Shown piece after piece: positions 13,567 through 44,370 of a DNA stretch of 64,000 nt; positions within the stretch are counted from its first letter, which is position 1, and every line of letters starts with the position of its first letter. The notes below the pieces were generated by a model. That model was not told where the DNA came from. It did not search any database and worked only from the letters and a program-made list of their open reading frames with translations. Source of the DNA: Mytilus trossulus (taxonomy: Eukaryota); assembly GCF_036588685.1 (NCBI RefSeq), contig NC_086382.1, positions 73,718,001 through 73,782,000 on the forward strand, given 5' to 3'. The translations under genes were made by a program, and so were the position numbers.

Positions 13567-14458
13567 CAAACTGTGCCCCTCTACTTGCCGACTTGTGTCT
13601 TTATTATTATGAGGCTGATCTCATGCAGGAACTTCTTAGGAAGAAAGATAAGAACCAATATCCTTTAACTCTACTTTCCGCTATATAGATGACGTTCTTT
13701 CACTAAACAATTCAAAATTTGGTGATTATGTGGACGGCATATATTCCATCGAATTGGAGATAAAGGATACTACAGATACAGTTAAGTCGGCTTCATATCT
13801 TCACTTACATCTAGAAATTAACAATGAGGGTCGGTTGAAAACAAAACTTTACGACAAAAGAGATGATTTCAGCTTTCCAATTGTGAACTTTCCATTTCTA
13901 AGTAGCAACATTCCAGCAGCACCTGCATACGGAGTATTTATCTCCCAATTGATGCGATATCCTCATGCTTGCATTTCCTATCATGATTTTCTTGATAAAG
14001 GGTTACTGCTCACAAATCAGCTATTAAACCAAGAGTTCCAAACGGTGAAGTTGAAATCATCCCTTCGTAAATTTTACGGACGACATCACAAGTTGGTTGA
14101 CCGTTATGGAATAACCGTTTCACAAATGATATCGTATATGTTCCTTACGTCGTAACTACAATCCCCTTCCCTTTCATGAATGTGACCTACCGAATTAGAC
14201 TATTTACCGGTTTTGTAATCACATAAGCAACACGACGGGTGCCACATGTAGAGCAGAATCTGCTTACCCTTCCGGAGCACCCGAGATCACCCCTAGTTTT
14301 TGGTGGGGTCCGTGTTGTTTATTCTTTAGTTTTCTATGTTGTGTCATGTGTACTATTGTTTTTTGTCTTTTTTCTTTTTCATTTTTAGCCTTGGCGTTGT
14401 CAGATTGATTTATATTTATGAGTTTGATTGTCCCTTTGGTATCTTTCGTCTCTCTTTT
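13567..14458 (+). mobile_element. 5'-truncated Penelope-like (probably Naiad-type) retroelement, family 1
   Basis: NCAPLLADL, FRYIDDVLSLNN and KLYDKRDDFSFPIVNFPFLSSNIP; 3' UTR ending gtc(c/t)ctctttt shared with the copies at 23328, 43405 and 59178. Confidence 0.8.
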
Positions 14459-16010: not shown

Positions 16011-16110
16011 TTGGTTTGTTTAAAGGATTTTGATTAACTGTGGTTTGTGTAGATCTTTTATTCGACTAGTATTTACATTTAGAATTATATTCATATGTAT
16101 TTTCTTGCAG

Positions 16111-19020
16111 CTACAAGTTATACAGAAGAAACGAAATGCAGCGTTCAAAATGATAATATTGATTGCAGCCATTTAGATTTGACAACAATACCCAGGCATC
16201 TTCCAGTAAACGCGACCAGTCTGAACTTAATTTGGAACAGTATCAAAATAGTCAAAAGCTTTTCTTTTAAGTCTTTGCGATACATTACATACCTTGATTT
16301 GGGAAGAAATGTTATAGAGTTAATCGAGATAAATGCTTTCCATGGCCTACATCGTCTACGAACTCTACATCTTCACGACAATGTTATCAATGTTTTTCCT
16401 GACGGCATGTTCGAAAGACTAAATGGTTTACAAGTTTTGTCAATTGATGGCAATAAACTAAAATATTTCCAAGATGATAAAATAACAAAAGTATCAAAGA
16501 TCGTGTCACTGACCACACTTTCGTTTGACGTTTATCCAGATTTCAAATTTCCCAGGCAATGGGGTACGTTAAGTAAGTTGACAGATTTGAGGATATTTGC
16601 TATGTCAGCAAAAGTAAAATTCAACAAGGCAATGTTCGTTCATGTTAATATGATGCAAACTACTGCTCTCTCCATAAACGTTGTGCCGTTCATTTCGGAA
16701 GATTTTTTCGAACATTTTCCTAAATTAGAGTCAATAACACTATCGATAGGTAGTGATTTACCGAACAATCCAATAGACCAAGTATTCAAATCTTTTGGAA
16801 TTTTTAGGGGAAAGAACATTTCAAACCTTGAAATAAGGTCTGGCAGATTTGATAATTGGTTTATTTTAAATTACAAGAGAATGAGGTATTTATGGTCAAT
16901 TTGTTTGAAACGACTGACATTGAATAATCTTTACATTAAAGATATACCTATATATGCGATGCAAGTATTTTGTATCAAAAGCACATGTCTCGAGTACCTG
17001 GAATTTTCTGACAATATCATGTTTGACCGAGGAGCTGCTGTAGTTGCAGTTATGAATAATTTAAAAAATTTGAAAGTTTTGAAAATTACAAGAAATTGGC
17101 GTAATTCGAGAAGAAAACGCTCACAACCATCAAAATTATATAATTTTGTACTTCCAAAAACTCTTGAAGAATTGTATATAGAACATAACATGGATGGTGA
17201 TATGGCCGATGTTGAAGTTGTAAACGGTTTCAATCTACGTGTGCTAAGCTTGAAGGACAATGAAATGTGGTCATGCATTGGAACTTTTACAGGAATTATA
17301 AATGTGGAGTATACCTCAATCTCTTGGAATTTTTAGGGGAAAGAACATTTCAAACCTTGAAATAAGGTCTGGCAGATTTGATAATGGGTTTATTTTAAAT
17401 TACAAGAGAATGAGGTATTTATGGTCAATTTGTTTGAAACGACTGACATTGAATAATCTCTACATTAAAGACATACTTATGTATGCGATGCAAGTATTTT
17501 CTATCAAAAGTACATGTCTCGAGTACTTGGAAATTTCTGAAAATACCCTCTTCGACAAAGGAAGTTCCGCTGTATTTTTTGAAGTGAAGAACTTAGAAAA
17601 TTTGAAAGTTTTAAAAATTATTAGAAATTGGCGTACTTCGAGATGTAAACGCTCGCAACCATCAAACTTATATAGTTTTGTGTTTCCAAAAACTCTTGAA
17701 GAATTGCACATAGAACATAACATGGCTGGTGATATGGCCAATGCCAAATTTAAACACAATGAAAATCTTCGTGTGTTGAGCTTAAAAGACAATGAAATGT
17801 GGTCATGCATTGGTAGTTTTACAGGAATTATAAATGTAGAGTATTTTGATATGTCTGGATGGAGATGCGAAAAGCTTTCTATTAACTTGCTTTATGGTTT
17901 CCCAAATTTGAAAACATTGAAAGCAAGTGGGTCACATTTAGGAAAAGGATTTGTAAACCTTACGGGAGCTGGGTCTTTCTTGAGTAAGAATCTGAAATTG
18001 CAAGATATTAATCTTTCGTCTAATAGGATAAGCAGTATACCAGATGGATTATTTTTGCGCCCGTTTGAGAAGTTATCATCAGTTAACATGTCGTATAACA
18101 ATCTCACAATATTTCCTAAGTTTCATGCAAGTATCAAAACATTGAAAATAATTGATTTAACCTTTAACAGTATTACACACTTCAATAATGAAAATATTAA
18201 ACGAATAAAAAAGCTTGGAGAAGTTAATTTACTGTTGAGAGGTAATCCCTTTCAATGTTCCTGTAAAACAATACAGTTTTTAAAATGGCTTAGTGAGACA
18301 AACCGAGTGCAAGATATATTAGATCTGACCTGTGAAACTGAAAAGGCTTCCAGAAGGTTTATGTCTGATGTTATTTCTAATCTAAAGACATTTGAGATGT
18401 CATGCCAAACTAAATTCTGGTTGCCGTTTGCTGTGTCTTTAACCTCCATTATCATATTTTCTATGATATTAACCGTCGTATTCTTTCGATATAAATATGC
18501 TGTTGAGTACTTATTATTGCGATTAAAAATGAAAATGAGAAACTACAAGGAACTGACACAGGACTATTATTATGATGCTTTTATATCATATAGTCATACA
18601 GATTTGGAGTGGATTAAACAGTTCCATGACAAGATAAGCAATATGGGCTTCGAATTATGTCTGGACGCTAAGAATTTTATTGGCGGTAAACCTATAGCAG
18701 AAAACGTGCTCAATGCCATCGATTCCAGTAGAAAGGTTATATTCGTTGTGACTCACAATTTCTTAAAGAGTGAATGGGGCTCTTATGAAATGGAAATGAC
18801 CCGTATGCATGCTTTTCAGAAGGGGAGAGAAGATATGGTGATTGTTGTCGTAAAAGATAATATTAAGATAACCGATATGCCGGATGTGATGAAGAATATG
18901 TGGTTTAAAATAACATGTATTCAATGGCCAGATGATGACAACCTGCCATACAATACGGAGGAAATATTTTATGAAAAGATGAAAATGTCTCTGAAAATGA
19001 AGGAAGAAACTACTATATAA
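16111..19020 (+). pseudogene. TLR-A: single-cysteine-cluster Toll-like receptor, chimeric with an out-of-frame internal ~530-bp repeat (ORFs 16095-17336 and 17302-19020)
   Basis: Phase-1 acceptor ttttcttgcag|16111; LRRNT, LRRs, LRRCT NPFQCSC, TM FWLPFAVSLTSIIIFSMILTVVFF and TIR YDAFISYS; frame breaks at ~17315; signal-peptide exon not identified. Confidence 0.85.
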
Positions 19021-22825: not shown

Positions 22826-25800
22826 ATGAACATTCTTAAGATTATACTTCTTTGGATCTTAACAGCCTTAAAAGAAGGTAAATTAATTCATTTATTTTAA
22901 TTATTACTATATTTCCAGTGGATATTCAGTTGACCATTGATGACTGTTTAAGGTTACGACCATGAACATTTGATGTATACGATGTCTTGAATAGTTTACA
23001 AAACACTTACACTTACACTTTTATCTTCATGCTTGATGATCAAAACAACACAATGTGTCTGTGTTTGGTATTGTCTTTGCATTTTGTACGGTTAAATATA
23101 TTTGTATTATTTAAGCGGTTTTTATATGTGACTTACACACAGGAGCTAGAAGTTTTTGCTTTACGATATATACTAGTATAGATTAAAAATTTACAAATAT
23201 GTTATGTTCTACATTGGTCAATATTATAGGTTTTGAATTCTTAAAGGGACACTAGCTACTAGAAATGTAAGAGAAAAATTAAGAATGATTGTATTGGTTC
23301 AATCATTTATAAAATACTTCAGATATGAACTTCTTTGGAAGAATGATAAGAAGTTAGCAATATCCTCTTACTCTACATTCCGCTATATAGATGATGTTCT
23401 TTCACTAAATAATTTAAAGATAAAGGATACTACAGATACAGTTATATTGGCCTCATATATTGACTTACATCTAGAAATTGACAATGAGAGTCTGTTGAAA
23501 ATAAAACTTTACGACAAAAGAGATGATTTCAGCTTTCCAATTGTGAACATTCCAGCAGCACTTGCAAACGGGATATATATCTCCCAATTTATACAATATT
23601 CCCGTGCTTGCATTTCCTATCATGATCAGGATCTGCCTACCCTTCCGGAGCACATGAGATCACCCCTAGTTTTGATGGGGTTCGTGTTGCTTATTCTTTA
23701 GTTTTATATGTTGTGTCATGTGTACTATTGTTTTTCTGTTTTTTTTTTTAATTTAAGCCATGGCGTTTTCAGTTTATTTTAGATTTATGAGTTTGACTGT
23801 CCTTTTGGTATCTTTCTCGTCCCTCTTTTGTACCATTTTGTTTCTTTTTTCAAATTAAGCAAAACATTCAGGATGATTTATTTACTTCTGACCGAATAAT
23901 TCGACCTCATTGAATCCATATTCATGTGAACTAAAATTTATAACCCCTTAGCTAAAGATTGTTAACTCAATCATTAGTCATGCTAGGTTATTTATAGGGA
24001 AGGATGTCAACATTGAAATGGGAAACAAAGGTAAGTCATTTTATTGACTGAATCGATCCACAAAAGATCATTCTTATACAGGTAATAGCGATGATTACGA
24101 CATATTTGTAATCTATAATAAGAAATTAAACAGACCAACGCCGTCGCGATTAAATAACACACAAAGCGAAGCTACGCATTAGCGAGCCTTTGCCCTACAA
24201 ATTGTTTATTTAAAGGATTTTATAACTTGAATTATCGGATTATGAATCAAATATGAGATTTTGAATCAAATCAATGAGCAAGTATTTGACAGGTAATGCC
24301 GCGTTAACCAATACGAAAAGAGTTGTTACAAATTTTCTTTTTGGTTTATCTGAAGGATTTTGATTTACTGTTATTAGAATAAGTTTTGTAAAGATCTTTT
24401 ATTTGACTAGTATTTACATAAAAAAATATATCAATACTTATATTCTTTCAGCTAAAGGTAATAGCAATGTAACGAAATGCAGCGTTCAAAACACCATTGT
24501 TGATTGTTGCAATTTAGCTTTCAACACAATACCCAGGCACCTACCAGTAAACGCGACGAATCTGGACTTAAGTAGAAACAGCATCAAAATAGTCAAAGGC
24601 TTTACCTTTCAGTCTTTGCGTTACCTCACCGACCTTAGTTTGGAAAGAAATGGTATACAGTTAATCGAGAAAAATGCTTTCCATGGGTTACATCGTCTAC
24701 AGAGTCTACATCTCAGATCCAATTTTATAAAATTATTTCCCGACGACCTGTTTGACAGACTGAATGGTTTGCAAGAGTTGTTAATTGACGGCAATAAACT
24801 ACAATACTTACAAGATAATGAGATAACAAAAATATTAAACATGTTAAAAATCATGTCATTGAGGAAATTTTCGTTTGACATATATCCAAATTTCAAATTT
24901 CCCAGTCAATGTGGTACGTTAGGTAAGTTGACAGATTTGCGGATTTACGCTAGGTCCAATTCAAAAAGGCAATGTTCGCTCATGTTAACGGGATGTCAAT
25001 AATGTCTATCTCCATAGTTATTGTGCCGTGTATATCGGAAGATTTTTTCGAACATTTTCCTAAATTAGAACCATTAAAACTTTCGATAGGTAGTGATTTA
25101 CCTAAAAATCCAATAGACCAAGTATTCAAATCTTTTGGAGTTTTCCATGGACGAAACATGATAAATATTGAAATAAGGATCGGCAGATTTGATAATGGGT
25201 TTAATTTAAATAACCAGAGAGTGAAGTATTTATGGTCAATTTGTTTGAAACGACTAACTTTGAGTGACTTATATATTAAAGACATATCTATATATGCGCT
25301 GCAAGTATTTTCTCTTCGAAGTACATGTCTTGAGTACCTGGAAATTTCCGAAAATTCTATCATGGACGAAGGAGGTACTTTCATTACACTTATTCAGAAC
25401 TTTAAAAATTTGAAAGTTTTTAAATATATAAGTAATTGGCGTCGTTCGAGAGGTAAACGCTCGCCTCCATTAAGATTATATATATTTATATTCGTATTGC
25501 CAAAAACTCTTCAAGAGCTTTATATAGAAGATAACATTGCGACTAAATTGACCAATGTTGAAATTATAAACGGCCATAATCTTCGTGTGTTCAGCTTGAG
25601 GGACAATGTCATCAGGTCATGTAAAGGTGGCTTTACAGGAACTATACATGTAGAGTATTTTGATATGTCTAGGTGGACATGCAAAAAGCTGTCATTTAAA
25701 TTATTATATGGTTTTCCTAATTTGAAAACGTTGAAAGCAATTGGGTCACTTCTAGGCCCTGGATTTGTCAACACTGCTGGAGCTGGGTCTTTCTTGAGTA

Positions 25801-26879
25801 AGAATCTGAAATTGCAAGATATTAATCTTTCGTCTAATAAGATAAACAGTATACCAGATGGACTTTTTGTGCGGCGGTTTGAACAGTTATTATCAGTTAA
25901 CATGTCGTATAACAACCTAACAATATTTCCTAAATTTCATGCAAGCATCAAAACATTAAAGATAATTGATTTGACATTTAACAGTATAACACATCTCAAT
26001 AACAAAGACATTAAACAAATTGAAAAGCTCGGAGAAGTTGACATATTCCTGAAAGGAAATCCCTTTCAATGTTCCTGTAAGACATTACAGTTTTTAAAGT
26101 TTTTAAGTCAATCCAAACGAGTACCGGATTTCTTAGATCTGACCTGTGTAACTGAAAAGGCTTCCAGAAGGTTTATGTCTGAAGTTATTTCCAACCTTAA
26201 GACATTTGAGATTTCCTGCAAAACGAAATTCTGGTTGCCGTTTGCTGTGTCTATAACTTCCGTTATCGTACTTTCCATAACAATAACTGTCGTATTCTTT
26301 CGATATAAATATGTTGTTGAGTACTTTGTATTGCGATTTAAAATGAAAATGAGAAATTACAAAGAATTGAGGAAGCAGTATGCGTATGATGCTTTTATAT
26401 CATACAGTCATGCAGATTCAGAATGGGTTAAAGATTTCTATGATATGGTAAATAGTATGGGCCTCGAATTATGTCTGGACGCCAAGGACTTTATTGCTGG
26501 TAACAGTATAGCAGAAAATGTGGTCAATGCAATCGATTCCAGCAGAAAGGTTATATTTATTATAACTCATAATTTTCTAAGGAGTACTTGGGGGTCATAT
26601 GAAATGGAAATGACCCGTATGCATGCTTTTCAGAAAGGAAGAGAAGACATGGTGATTGTTGTTGTAAAGGATGAGATAAAGATAACAGATATGCCGGAAA
26701 TATTAAAGATAATGTGGTCTAAAATTACATGTATCCAATGGCCAAACGATGACAATCTGCCATACAATACGGAGGAAATATTCTATGAAAAGATTAAAAT
26801 GTCTCTGAAAAAGAAGGAAGAAAGTACTTTACTGTATCTAGAAATTCAGTTGTATAGAACATTTTTCGTCATTTCCTAA
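22826..26879 (+). CDS. TLR-B: Toll-like receptor with a 10-bp frameshift deletion at 24956/24957 (exon 1 22826-22877, exon 2 from 24452); pseudogene, soluble 200-aa LRR product, or splice-rescued 794-aa receptor
   Basis: Signal exon MNILKIILLWILTALKE-G|gtaaat (phase 1); acceptor tctttcag|24452; ggctaaagta missing relative to TLR-D 41271-41280; full LRRCT-TM-TIR in ORF 24972-26879; 1-nt deletion near the C-terminus. Confidence 0.85.
23245..24196. mobile_element. TTAA-flanked non-autonomous DNA transposon (Kolobok-like) in the TLR-B intron
   Basis: ttaa|agggacactagc ... tgccct; homologous copy at the same intron position in TLR-D (39940-40502). Confidence 0.5.
23328..23830 (+). mobile_element. 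Internally deleted Penelope-like family 1 fragment nested in the intronic DNA transposon
   Basis: FRYIDDVLSLNN, KLYDKRDDF and the shared 3' tail; absent from the homologous TLR-D intron. Confidence 0.8.
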
Positions 26880-30300: not shown

Positions 30301-30795
30301 TATGAACAAGGAGATGTGGTAGGATTGACAATGAGACAACTATCTACAAAACATCAAAGTCACATATAGATTGTATGAAATCAATTAAAATATATAATGG
30401 AACAAGTTGGCAAGATGACGAGTACAGTGTGTTCCTATGATTCCAAATTTGTTGAAATACACGTCCTGCATACGAACACATCTTGTTTCCAGTAAAGAAA
30501 TCATATATATTCGTATACATCTTACAGAGAATGTTCTGTTCAAATCAACAAACAAACGAATCAAACCGTGTAAGGCAAAGTAGAATGACATCCACACCCA
30601 ATATTGTATGTTTAACTTAGAAAAGCTCAAAGTAAATCGATGATTAATTATATACTTTAAAGATGATGACAGATACAAATGTCTCAACTTTAAACCCTCA
30701 ACTCTAGATTGTTTATGATAAACAGTTATCTTACATGTTTTATTCGTCAAATATAAGGCATGTACGTTAAGATCAATATTTATTTACTCTTGCAG

Positions 30796-31508
30796 TTCAA
30801 AGTAAAGGAAATAAGACGGAATGTATCGAGGAAAATGCACATGTTAATTGCAGATTTGTGAATTCCTGCAAAACAAAGTTTTGGTTACCGTTTGCCGTGT
30901 CTATAACCTCAATTATCATGTTTGCCATATTATTAACCGTCGTATTCGTTCGATATAGATATGCTGTTGAGTACTTTTTATTGAAATTCAAAATGAAAAT
31001 AAGAAATTATAAAGAATTAAACCATGAATATACTTATGATGCTTTTATATCATATAGTCATGCAGATACGCAATGGATTAAACAGTTCCATGACAATGTT
31101 ACCGGTATGGGTTTCGATTTATGTCTAGATACCAAGGACTTTACCTGTGGTCCTGGTATTGCAGAAAATATTATAAATGCAATCGAATCCAGCAGAAAGG
31201 TGATATTTATTATAACTCACAATTTCTTAAAGAGTACTTGGGGATCGTATGAAATGGAAATGACCCGCATGCATGCTTTTCAGAAGGGAAGAGAAGACAT
31301 GGTAATTGTTGTTGTAAAGGATGAGATAAAGGTATCCGATATGCCGGAAGTATTAAAGTGTATGTGGTTTAAAATTACATGTATTCAATGGCCGAACGAT
31401 GACAACCTGCCTTACAATACGAAAGAAATATTTTATGAAAAGATAAAAATGTCTCTCCAAAGGAGGGAGGATACTACTTTACTGTATTCTAGAAATTCAG
31501 CTGTATAG
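30796..31508 (+). CDS. TLR-C: LRR-less Toll-like receptor (LRRNT cap fused in frame to end of LRRCT, TM, intact TIR)
   Basis: Phase-1 acceptor ttactcttgcag|30796; reads QSKGNKTECIEENAHVNC-R-FVNSCKTKFWLPFAVS...TIR...YSRNSAV*; 566 codons missing relative to TLR-D; exon 1 uncertain. Confidence 0.8.
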
Positions 31509-39491: not shown

Positions 39492-42400
39492 ATGCACATT
39501 ATTAAAATCATATTCCTTTGGATCGTAACAGCCTTACAAGAATGTAAGTTATTTCATTTGTTTTTATTTATTACTATATTTCCAGTGGCTATTCAGTAGG
39601 ACATTGATGACTGTTTAAGGTCAAGACAATACACATTTCCACTGATATATGCGATGTATTCAAAAGTTCACATAACACTCACACTTAAACTCTTCTCATC
39701 ATGCTTGGTGATCAAAATAACACAATTTGTCTATGATTGTTGATTATGCAATGTTTGGTGATTGTCTTCGCATTTTCAAGGTTAAATATATTTGTATTAA
39801 TGTGGTTTTTATATGTGACTAACACACAGGAGCTAGCAGTTATTATTTTTACGATGTATACTCGTATAGATTAAATGGTTACCAGATTGAATGCTCTATG
39901 TTCTACATTGATCCATATCAGGTTTTTTTTTATTTTTAAAGGGGCACTAGCTATGAGATATGTTAAACATTCCAATTACGAGTTTTGTTTTGTTCTATTA
40001 TCAATAAAAGACTTATAGTGAAATAATACTTTGCCTTAGCAGCCAGTATGGTTTATTTTTGTCAAATTAAGCTAAAACATTGATGATGATTTATTTACTT
40101 GCGAGAAAATAATTTGAGCTTATTGAATTCGTATTCATGTCAACTTAAATGTTACCCCTTAGCTAGAGATGGTTAATTAATGCATTGGTCGTGTTAGGTT
40201 ATTTATAGGGAAAGAATGTCAACATTGAAAAGTGAAACAAAGGTAAATCATATGATTGACTGATTTGATCCACAAAAAATCTTTGTTATACAGGTAATAA
40301 CGATGATTAAGACATATTTTTAATCTATAATATGAAATGAAACATCCCTAGAAAAATCCAATGGACGAGTTTGCTTCTATGTATATCTACATTGATGTTC
40401 ATATCGCTTATATGAATCGGAGGTCAATTCTGTAGTTTATTAGAAGCTGTATCATTTGAATTACACACGAAACGAAGCTACGCATTATCGAGGCAATGCC
40501 CTTTAACTTGTTTGTTGTAGACATTTTATAACTTGAATGAATGTATTACCGGGTTAAAAATTCAAATATTATTATTTGAGTCAAATCGGTTAACAAATAT
40601 TTGAAAGTAAATGCCGCTTAAATCAATACGAAAGAGGTGTTTCAAATTTTCTTTTTGGTTTATCTGAAGGATTTTGATAAACTTTTATTTGAATAAGGTT
40701 TGTATAGATCTTTGATTCAACTAGTCTTGACATCAAAAATTATATTAATACTTATATTTTTGCAGCTAAAGGTTATAGTAATGAAACGAAATGCAGCGTT
40801 CAAAGCACCAATGTTAATTGCTGCAATTTAGCCTTGACCACAATACCAAAGCACTTACCAGTAAACGCGACGAATCTGGACTTAAGTAGAAACAGCATCA
40901 AAATAGTCAAAGGCTTTACCTTTCAGTCTTTGCGATATCTCACCGACCTTAATTTATTTAGAAATGGGATACAGGTAATCGAGAAAAATGCTTTCCATGG
41001 ATTACATCGTCTACGGAGTCTACATCTTAGTTCCAATTCTATAGAATTATTTCCCGACGGCATGTTTGACAGACTGAATGGTTTACAAGAGTTGTCAATT
41101 GAATGCAATAAACTACAATACTTACAAGATAATGACATAACAAAAATATTAAACATGTTAAAGATCGTGTCACTGAGGAAATTTTCATTTGACATATATC
41201 CAGATTTCAAATTTCCCAGTCAATTAGGGCCGTTAAGTAAGTTGACAGATTTGGGGATTTTCGCTAGGTCGGCTAAAGTACAATTCAATAAGGCAATGTT
41301 TTCTCATGTTAATTTACTGCAAATACTGTCTCTATCCATAGATGTTGTACCGTTCATATCGGATGATTTTTTCGAACATTTTCCTAAATTAGATTCAATA
41401 ACACTTTCGATAGGTATTGATTTACCTAAAAATCCGATAGACCAAGTATTCAAATCTTTTGGAGTTTTCCGAGGAAGAAACCTGACGAGCATTAATATAA
41501 ATACTGGGAGATTTGATAATGGGTTTATTTTAAATTACAAGAGAATGAGGTATTTATGGTCAATTTGTTTGAAACGACTGACATTGGATAATCTCTACAT
41601 TAAAGACATACTCATTTATGCGATGCAAGTTTTTTCTATCAAAAGCACATGTCTTGAGTACCTGGAAATTTCTGAAAATACCATCTTCGATCGAGGAGGT
41701 TCTTTACTTTCAGTTATGAAAAACTTAAAAAATTTGAAAGTATTGAAACTTAAAAGAAATTCGCGTAGTTCGAGAAGTAAACGCTCACAACAACCAAGCT
41801 TATTTAGTTTCGTGCTTCCAAAATCTCTTGAAGAATTGTATATAGAGCATAACATGGCGGGTGATATGACCGATGTTGAATTTATAAACGGTATCAATCT
41901 TCGTGTGCTAAGCCTGAAGGACAATGAAATGTGGTCATGCATTGGAACTTTTACAGGAATTATAAATGTTGAATATTTTGACATGTCTGGATGGAGATGC
42001 GAAAAGCTGTCAATAAATTTGCTATATGGTTTTCCAAATTTAAAGACATTGAAAGCCAGTGGGTCACATCTAGGAAAAGGATTTGTAAACCTTACTGGAG
42101 GTGGGTCTTTTTTTAGTAAGAATCTGAGATTGCAAGATATTAATCTTTCGTTTAATAGAATAAACAGTATACCAGAAGGACTACTTCTGCGCCGGTTTGA
42201 GCAATTATCATCAGTAAACATGTCATATAACAATCTTACAATATTTCCTAAATTTCATGCAAGCATCAAAACATTGAAAATAATTGATTTGACCTTTAAC
42301 AGTATTACACACTTCAATAACGAAGACATTGAACACATTGAAAAGCTTGGAGAAGTTGATATACTCTTGAGAGGTAATCCCTTTCAATGTTCCTGTAAAA

Positions 42401-43176
42401 CATTACAGTTTTTAAAATGGCTAAGTGAGACAAATCGAGTACAGGATATCTTAGATCTGACATGTGAAACTGAAAAGGCTTCCAAAAGGTTTATGTCTGA
42501 AGTTATTTCTAATCTAAAGACATTTGAGATGTCATGCCAAACTAAATTCTGGTTGCCGTTTGCCGTGTCTATAACCTCCATTATCATACTTGCTATGATA
42601 TTAACCGTCGTATTCTTTCGATATAAATATGCTGTTGAGTACTTTTTACTGAGATTCAAACTGAAAATGAAAAATTACAATGAATTGCAACAGGAATTTA
42701 TTAATGATGCCTTTATATCATATAGTCACACAGATTTGTTATGGGTAAAACAGTTTTATGACAGGGTAAACAGTATGGGCTTCGAATTATGTCTGGACGC
42801 CAAGGACTTTATTGCTGGTGAAAGTATAGCAGTAAATGTAATAAATGCAATCGATTCCAGCAGAAAGGTTATATTTATTATAACTCACGATTTCTTAAAG
42901 AGTAGTTGGGGGTCATATGAAATGGAAATGACCCGTATGCATGCTTTCCAGAAAGGAAGAGAAGATATGGTAATTGTTGTTGTGAAGGATAATATTAAGA
43001 TAGCAGATATGCCGGATGTGATGAAGAATATGTGGTTTAAAATTACATGTATCAAATGGCCGAACGATGACAACTTGCCATACAATACGGAGGAAATATT
43101 TTATGAAAAGATAAAAATGTCTCTCCAAAGGAGGGAGGATACTACTTTACTGTATTCTAGGAATTCAGTTGTATAG
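39492..43176 (+). CDS. TLR-D: intact single-cysteine-cluster Toll-like receptor, 820 aa (exons 39492-39543 and 40766-43176)
   Basis: Signal exon MHIIKIIFLWIVTALQE-T|gtaagt (phase 1); acceptor tttttgcag|40766 in frame with ORF 40834-43176; LRRNT, LRRs, LRRCT, TM and TIR uninterrupted. Confidence 0.95.
39940..40502. mobile_element. TTAA-flanked non-autonomous DNA transposon (Kolobok-like) in the TLR-D intron
   Basis: TTAA|aggggcactagc ... gcaatgccct|TTAA with imperfect TIRs. Confidence 0.55.
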
Positions 43177-43404: not shown

Positions 43405-44370
43405 TTTCTTGATTGACAACATATTTGTTACGTTCGGAGGACGTGTTTTCAACAGACTGTCGGCATCCCAATGGGAACAAACTTGCCCCTCTACTTGCTG
43501 ACTTGTTTCTTTATTATTATGAGACTGATTTCATGCAGGAACTTCTTAGGAAGAAAGATAAGAAGTTTGCAATATCCTTTAACTCTACTTTCCGCTATAT
43601 AGATGACGTTCTTTCACTAAACAATTCAAAATTTGGTGACTATGTGGATCGCATCTATCCCATCGAATTGGAGATAAAGGATACTACAGATACAGTTAAG
43701 TCGGCTACATATCTTGACTTACATCTAGAAATTGACAATGAGGGTCGGTTGAAGACAAAACTTTACGACAAAAGAGATGATTTCAGCTTTCCAATTGTGA
43801 ACTTTCAATTTCTAAGTAGCAACATTCCAGCAGCACCTGCATACGGGGTATATATCTCCCAATTGATACGATATTACCGTGCTTGCATTTCCTATCATGA
43901 TTTTCTTGATAGAGGGTTACTGCTCACAATGAAGCTATTAAACCAAGAGTTCCAAATGGTGAAGTTGAAATCACCCCTTCGTAAATTTTACGGACGCCAT
44001 CACGAGTTGGTTGACCGTTATGGAATAACCGTTTCACAAATGATATCGGATATGTTCCTAACGTCGTATTTGCAATCCCCTTCCCTTCCATGAATTTGAC
44101 CTACCGAATAAGACTATTTACCGGATTTGTAATCACATAAGCAACACGACGGGTGCCGCATGTGGAGCAGGATCTGCTTACCCTTCCGGAGCACCTGAGA
44201 TCACCCCTAGTTTTTGGTGGGGTTCGTGTTGTTTATTCTTTAGTTTTCTATGTTGTGTCATGTGTACTTTTGTTTTTCTGTTTGTTTTTTTCATTTTTAG
44301 CCATGGCGTTGTCAGTTTGTTTTAGATTTATGAGTTTGACTGTCCCTTTGGTATCTTTCGTCCCTCTTTT
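43405..44370 (+). mobile_element. 5'-truncated Penelope-like family 1 element ~230 nt after the TLR-D stop
   Basis: GIPMGTN/LAPLLADLFL (frameshifted), FRYIDDVLSLNN, YDKRDDF and HHELVDRYG; conserved 3' UTR. Confidence 0.85.

Follow-up and report, generated by a model that had tools for sequence, protein, structure and literature searches.

A predicted proprotein-convertase site in a mid-ectodomain loop of mussel Toll-like receptors

Toll-like receptors (TLRs) of the mussel Mytilus trossulus carry an R-X-K-R↓S motif (the arrow marks the predicted cut) in a loop of LRR12 that, judged from sequence, is a real feature under purifying selection, more widespread than first noticed yet not universal, with a predicted convertase role. 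A preliminary description of the 64-kb stretch of DNA analysed here in full (the window) had already read the motif as a convertase site, on the grounds that it recurs in four independent genes amid divergent neighbouring residues. Those grounds proved wrong. The reading itself is backed by the retention of P4, P2, P1 and P1', by a predicted flexible loop, by recurrence across Mollusca and by the presence of a furin-like gene. The signal in excess of chance comes, as far as the sequences tell, from distant paralogues and other molluscs, not from the window.

The receptor cluster and the TLR-D gene

Pfam matches, translations and a homologue search identify the window as a tandem cluster of mussel TLR genes (Table 1), whose nearest named homologues are Mytilus proteins of 57-89% identity. 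RRKR, RCKR, RGKR and RSKR were all recovered on the + strand where the preliminary description had placed them, each with Ser next to it and each at an equivalent position of the ectodomain. They had been assigned to four separate TLR ectodomains; instead they represent three Mytilus TLR paralogues, 73-82% identical, since the motifs at 17109 and 17641 belong to one frame-broken gene, gene A, which contributes two of the four by internal tandem duplication. The duplicated segments of gene A (16789-17312 and 17318-17844) measure ~530 bp each and are 87% identical, and P0006 and P0017, its M. galloprovincialis homologues, contain the segment once. In P0004, the M. edulis counterpart of gene C, the reading frame is continuous. 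The gene A duplication and the gene C frame break may be genuine or errors of assembly; contigs of four runs neither clearly bridge nor refute them among the matches listed. A further paralogue, the remnant in Table 1, lacks both the LRRs and the motif; it may be what a deletion left behind, or else a regulator consisting of a membrane-anchored TIR only.

Table 1. Coordinates of the TLR features in the window.
Feature	Position	Strand	Remarks
TLR gene A coding exon	16110..19020	+	internal tandem duplication, frame break at its junction
RRKR↓S, first duplicated segment of gene A	17109..17123 (RRKR 17109-17120)	+	
RCKR↓S, second duplicated segment of gene A	17641..17655 (RCKR 17641-17652)	+	
Exon-1-like signal-peptide exon, TLR gene C	22826..22877	+	resembles TLR-D exon 1, GT donor after it; splicing putative
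TLR gene C coding exon	24418..26879	+	frame break near 24957
RGKR↓S of gene C	25449-25463 (RGKR 25449-25460)	+	
TLR paralogue remnant	30771..31508	+	N-cap-like start fused in frame to LRRCT end, TM, TIR
TLR-D exon 1	39492..39543	+	start codon, hydrophobic N-terminus, likely signal peptide (judged from sequence)
TLR-D exon 2	40766..43176	+	LRRNT, 20 LRR strands, LRRCT, transmembrane helix, TIR
LRR12 of TLR-D	41731..41823	+	31 residues; convex segment = basic loop
R354-S-K-R357↓S358, predicted proprotein-convertase site, P4 to P1'	41773..41787 (RSKR 41773-41784)	+	

Related repeat-derived frames flank TLR copies (13652-14155, 23237-23701 and 43413-44093), one of them weakly resembling a reverse transcriptase (E 0.059, short of the cut-off), and such frames may have favoured unequal crossing-over here. 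Another TLR of this cluster, L003 on G000:C10, lies ~3-6 kb upstream of the window and has an open frame of 820 codons with RSKR↓S. Split frames or internal stops are found in many TLR paralogues of the assembly (L006, L007, L011, L016 and several C12 loci), a pattern that either a fast turnover of genes or faulty assembly could produce.

TLR-D is the sole intact, spliced TLR among the motif-bearing genes of the window. Its exon joint (39543>40766, GT..AG) is present in contigs of three putative RNA runs from three studies and absent from a DNA run, and the spliced coding sequence specifies 820 aa without internal stop. Exon 2 has Pfam matches to LRR_8, TIR and TIR_2. With an LRR ectodomain capped at both its N and C ends, one transmembrane (TM) helix and a TIR domain, the protein has the make-up of a single-cysteine-cluster TLR. 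The entire protein has no R-X-K/R-R other than RSKR↓S, which is situated 254 residues N-terminal of the TM segment and would thus face the lumen of the secretory pathway. Convertases are specific for R-X-K/R-R, with P3 free and a small P1' residue, and the TLR-D sequence conforms to this furin/convertase substrate consensus.

Retention of the motif and structure of its loop

All four window copies have identical motif codons, AGA-nnn-AAA-CGC. The preliminary description held that neighbouring LRR residues diverge strongly, which is contradicted by flanks of +/-50 residues that are 56-74% identical pairwise, with 47 of 107 columns invariant. Given such similar flanks and the same codons, agreement of the motif within the window is expected from recent duplication, and conservation within the window only was rejected as evidence for a site because the copies are recent duplicates.

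A second TLR clade, on another contig of the same genome and ~35% identical, has such motifs as well: its four open frames read RVKR↓S, RNKR↓F, RLKR↓S and RVKR↓S, while a broken copy reads RLER↓S. The alignment comprised 29 sequences of clade A and 21 of clade B, drawn from the genome and from databases; P0014 (gene A of the window) and P0019 (region absent) were excluded. At an ectodomain identity of 30-35% between the clades, the same residue is found in at least 80% of both clades at four of 20 loop columns, and these are P4, P2, P1 and P1', with P3 free. Of 64 R/K columns six are shared, three of the six being those of the motif, which is also the only run of five columns with at least three shared polar residues among the 577 columns scanned. 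The full consensus is present in 37 of these 50 clade sequences and R-X-X-R or K/R-R in 47. In the codons of 12 own-genome copies, the four motif positions show three replacement and six silent changes against 65 and 21 in the 15 other loop columns (Fisher p 0.014; minimum counts, from related sequences). Both P2 replacements fall in broken copies, although an M. galloprovincialis protein that is intact has RLER↓S too.

There are exceptions among intact and closely related sequences. The closest homologue, P0001 from M. edulis (89%), reads KSKR↓S, the intact clade-B protein P0289 reads RLER↓S, P0021 reads RSVH↓S, and the related paralogue L013 is without the site. When each clade is taken separately, the motif columns do not stand out (rank 17-60%). 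With 25% K+R the loop as a whole is basic, and its alignment can anchor on identical residues, yet the offsets differ by no more than one residue.

The AlphaFold model of the TLR-D ectodomain, obtained with a 90-row alignment, is a solenoid with 20 concave strands (pLDDT 92.4, pTM 0.89). It places the motif in coil on the convex segment of LRR12, where the 10-residue block with the motif has a pLDDT of 60, joint lowest with the C-terminal block; model confidence is high on both sides of the loop and the solenoid is continuous. In the model of a scallop homologue, the coil after the twelfth strand (LRR12) forms the lowest block of its ectodomain, with a pLDDT of 65. The earlier term for the stretch, a basic non-LRR insertion, overstates the case. 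In TLR-D the motif is inside the convex part of a repeat of 31 residues, and LRR4, LRR10 and LRR16 likewise have 30-31; in relatives, on the other hand, the homologous stretch, a mid-ectodomain loop that lophotrochozoan-type TLRs widely share, measures anywhere between 17 and 170 residues.

Four cysteines (model positions 262, 290, 386 and 406) are conserved, in 86/90, 86/90, 71/89 and 78/89 rows, respectively. Judged from spacing only, they would form two pairs, one to either side of the cut site, with none bridging it. Foldseek gave TLR4 as best fold match of the ectodomain (TM 0.57-0.67, versus 0.39-0.49 for TLR7/8), the matches including ectodomains of TLR4, TLR3 and TLR2, and in VIA-align many LRR proteins tie as fold match.

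Occurrence in other molluscs and comparison with known receptors

A survey of relatives for the motif, suggested in the preliminary description, bears the site out for the Mytilus clades (the 37 of 50 above) and for several other molluscs, but not for the wider relatives. The profile search covered 1.84 billion representatives with a profile that included the motif, and 127 of 154 rows were kept. Outside the mussel and scallop clades, the loop has canonical sites in 4/99 sequences versus 1.7 by shuffle (p 0.085) and dibasic pairs in 37/99 versus 21.8. Gastropods account for two of these four (RFRR↓S in Bulinus, RLKR↓N in Aplysia) and an oyster for one. A short-loop, scallop-type clade at 23-28% identity, eight of whose nine members are named as scallops, has dibasic loops throughout (9/9) and canonical sites in 4/9, where shuffles give 4.2 and 0.7. 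Region search with a scallop TLR returned three proteins only.

In the sequence table of PMC10279657, scanned with each entry cut at 400 residues and with placement by eye, 24 Arg-at-P1 pentamers, about one third of which were picked after an example had been seen, gave 28 matches: 16 in the loop, eight just inside the membrane and four N-terminal of the LRRs, with no match at any other LRR position. Six Lys-at-P1 control pentamers gave two matches in the same table scan, none of them in the loop. The loop matches derive from two TLRs of the chiton Acanthopleura, from scallops, from the oysters Magallana and Saccostrea, from the clam Cyclina and from the pearl mussel Margaritifera. Rows 1261 and 228 of supplementary file 6 of the same source hold TLRs of Margaritifera and Biomphalaria with a furin-type motif before the LRR N-cap, which suggests an N-terminal propeptide; the Margaritifera TLR has a second furin-type motif in the mid loop.

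Trees of the loop-masked central region and TIR group mussel A, B, L013 and P0128 together (100/99). An exclusive clade of mussel A+B plus scallop was rejected (AU p 6e-5), while a mussel and scallop clade to which the site-less L013 and P0128 were added was not (AU p 0.225), these groups having been named after earlier trees had been seen. Because the trees place the mussel group ambiguously with respect to the scallop clade, an ancient origin with loss and repeated gain are both possible. The mollusc site is likely independent of that of vertebrate TLR7/8.

The comparison with the vertebrate Z-loop, drawn in the preliminary description, holds only as an analogy. Human TLR8 has a multibasic RKRR↓S in its Z-loop, a mid-ectodomain insertion, and TLR-D likewise has a multibasic stretch followed by Ser. 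The Z-loop of human TLR7 has no canonical R-X-K/R-R, so that what had been stated for TLR7 and TLR8 together fits TLR8 better. Vertebrate TLR3, with an insertion in LRR12, is processed by cathepsins through ectodomain loop cleavage, and chicken TLR15 senses proteases via ectodomain cleavage; both differ from TLR-D in the proteases involved, and the canonical furin motif was absent from the two TLR3 sequences scanned. Where the analogy does not extend is position: TLR-D has 20 LRRs, as strands counted on the model, and its loop in LRR12, whereas the TLR7/8/9 subfamily is described with 26 LRRs and an insertion between LRR14 and LRR15, and with Z-loop cleavage that is required for activation of TLR8 (PMC7336380). 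Since both LRR number and loop position differ, TLR-D is by its architecture not a TLR7/8/9 member; its matches to these receptors are 22-26% identical, no better than those to unrelated LRR proteins.

Toll5A of Aedes aegypti has a Z-loop that protrudes on the convex side and whose cleavage affects ligand and dimer state (bioRxiv 2021.09.06.459066). This Spaetzle receptor differs from TLR-D in having the loop at LRR14-15. The authors of that preprint propose asparagine endopeptidase sites and no furin site, and the loop was not processed spontaneously on expression in insect cells, which counts against a cut in TLR-D. The expansion of single-cysteine-cluster TLRs in bivalves was described by Saco et al. 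2023 (PMC10279657), whose table holds close homologues of the window genes and whose V type (over 800 aa) fits the size of TLR-D. In a word search of that source, furin, cleav-, insertion and loop were absent from the main text, and furin and cleavage from the supplement. By title and abstract start, no published report of a furin site in a molluscan TLR was found among the matches listed, in a search whose scope mostly excluded subscription journals.

Proposed maturation and its alternatives

Convertase maturation of TLRs has been described for vertebrate endosomal receptors. The mussel genome has a furin-like P-domain whose best match is to furin (E 2e-29, P-domain only). The proprotein-convertase P-domain (PF01483) has 40 matches over the cut-off, many of them clustered, on the G000 contigs C2, C3, C10 and others (L077-L082), and this clustering suggests that convertase-like genes have expanded in the species. 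Going by the sequences, the R-X-K-R↓S loop motif is quite probably a real convertase site that is cut. We also favour, with less assurance, a two-chain maturation in which TLR-D is cut and its halves are retained together. That loop cleavage acts as a Z-loop-like activation gate is a tentative proposal by analogy.

As proposed, a furin-like convertase would cut TLR-D after R357 late in the secretory pathway, giving an N-piece of ~39 kDa (LRR1-12) and a membrane-anchored C-piece of ~54 kDa (LRR13-20, TM and TIR), both sizes before glycosylation. The halves would be held non-covalently via the continuous LRR sheet; non-covalent holding is proposed because the conserved central cysteines are apparently paired on either side, with none bridging the cut. 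In the most speculative step, the cut may lift a barrier to dimerisation or to the access of ligand, in the way that cleavage of the TLR8 Z-loop does.

The same sequence evidence for a cut would also serve a different outcome, in which the 12 N-terminal LRRs are shed to leave a truncated receptor and a soluble LRR fragment (a decoy or carrier), or in which the receptor is inactivated. No cysteine pair apparently spans the site and the cluster includes an LRR-less copy, the remnant of Table 1, both of which would suit shedding; the model, however, is one continuous solenoid of high confidence on both sides of the loop, and the halves of TLR8 remain associated after cleavage, so that we consider shedding or inactivation unlikely. 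More improbable still, in our judgement, is that the loop is a bait for extracellular trypsin-like proteases of host or microbes, the receptor sensing proteolysis with no maturation in the secretory pathway. Trypsin-like enzymes need no more than one Arg or Lys, yet P4, P2, P1 and P1' are kept jointly with P3 free; Lys-at-P1 variants, as represented by the six control pentamers, are absent from the loop; and a canonical site in a secreted protein normally meets furin first. What speaks for a bait is the flexible, basic nature of the loop and the wide range of its lengths, the enrichment of plain dibasic pairs in the wider relatives by the shuffle comparison above, and the absence of Arg at P4 from several members.

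It is also conceivable that the motif is not cut at all, being a conserved basic patch for an anionic ligand or partner, or merely inherited. Such a reading can draw on the recent duplication and identical codons of the window copies, on the richness of the loop in K/R and on the fact that most of the wider family is without the site. Inheritance, however, leaves the contrast of replacement and silent changes and the sharing of four columns unexplained, a charge patch would accept Lys and Arg alike at P1 and would not require Ser at P1', and the low pLDDT speaks against a structural role; we rate an uncut motif as doubtful as shedding. Cleavage of TLR-D by a convertase, with retention of both halves, remains our preferred reading.

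Extended to molluscs, from chitons to all main bivalve lineages, the LRR12 loop of expanded TLRs may be a convertase-operated maturation switch, independent of the vertebrate Z-loop and gained and lost among paralogues, such that part of the repertoire signals only as cleaved two-chain receptors; we put this forward tentatively, as somewhat short of an even chance. Among the hundreds of orphan receptors of the repertoire, the motif singles out a subset that can be tested and for which fragment sizes are predicted exactly; paralogues that naturally differ in having the site (L013, P0001, P0289) are ready comparisons. Overlooking processing could distort the interpretation of antibody, reporter-assay and recombinant-ectodomain experiments on bivalve TLRs. 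A parallel molluscan site, if true, would mean that proteolytic gating of TLRs arose more than once.
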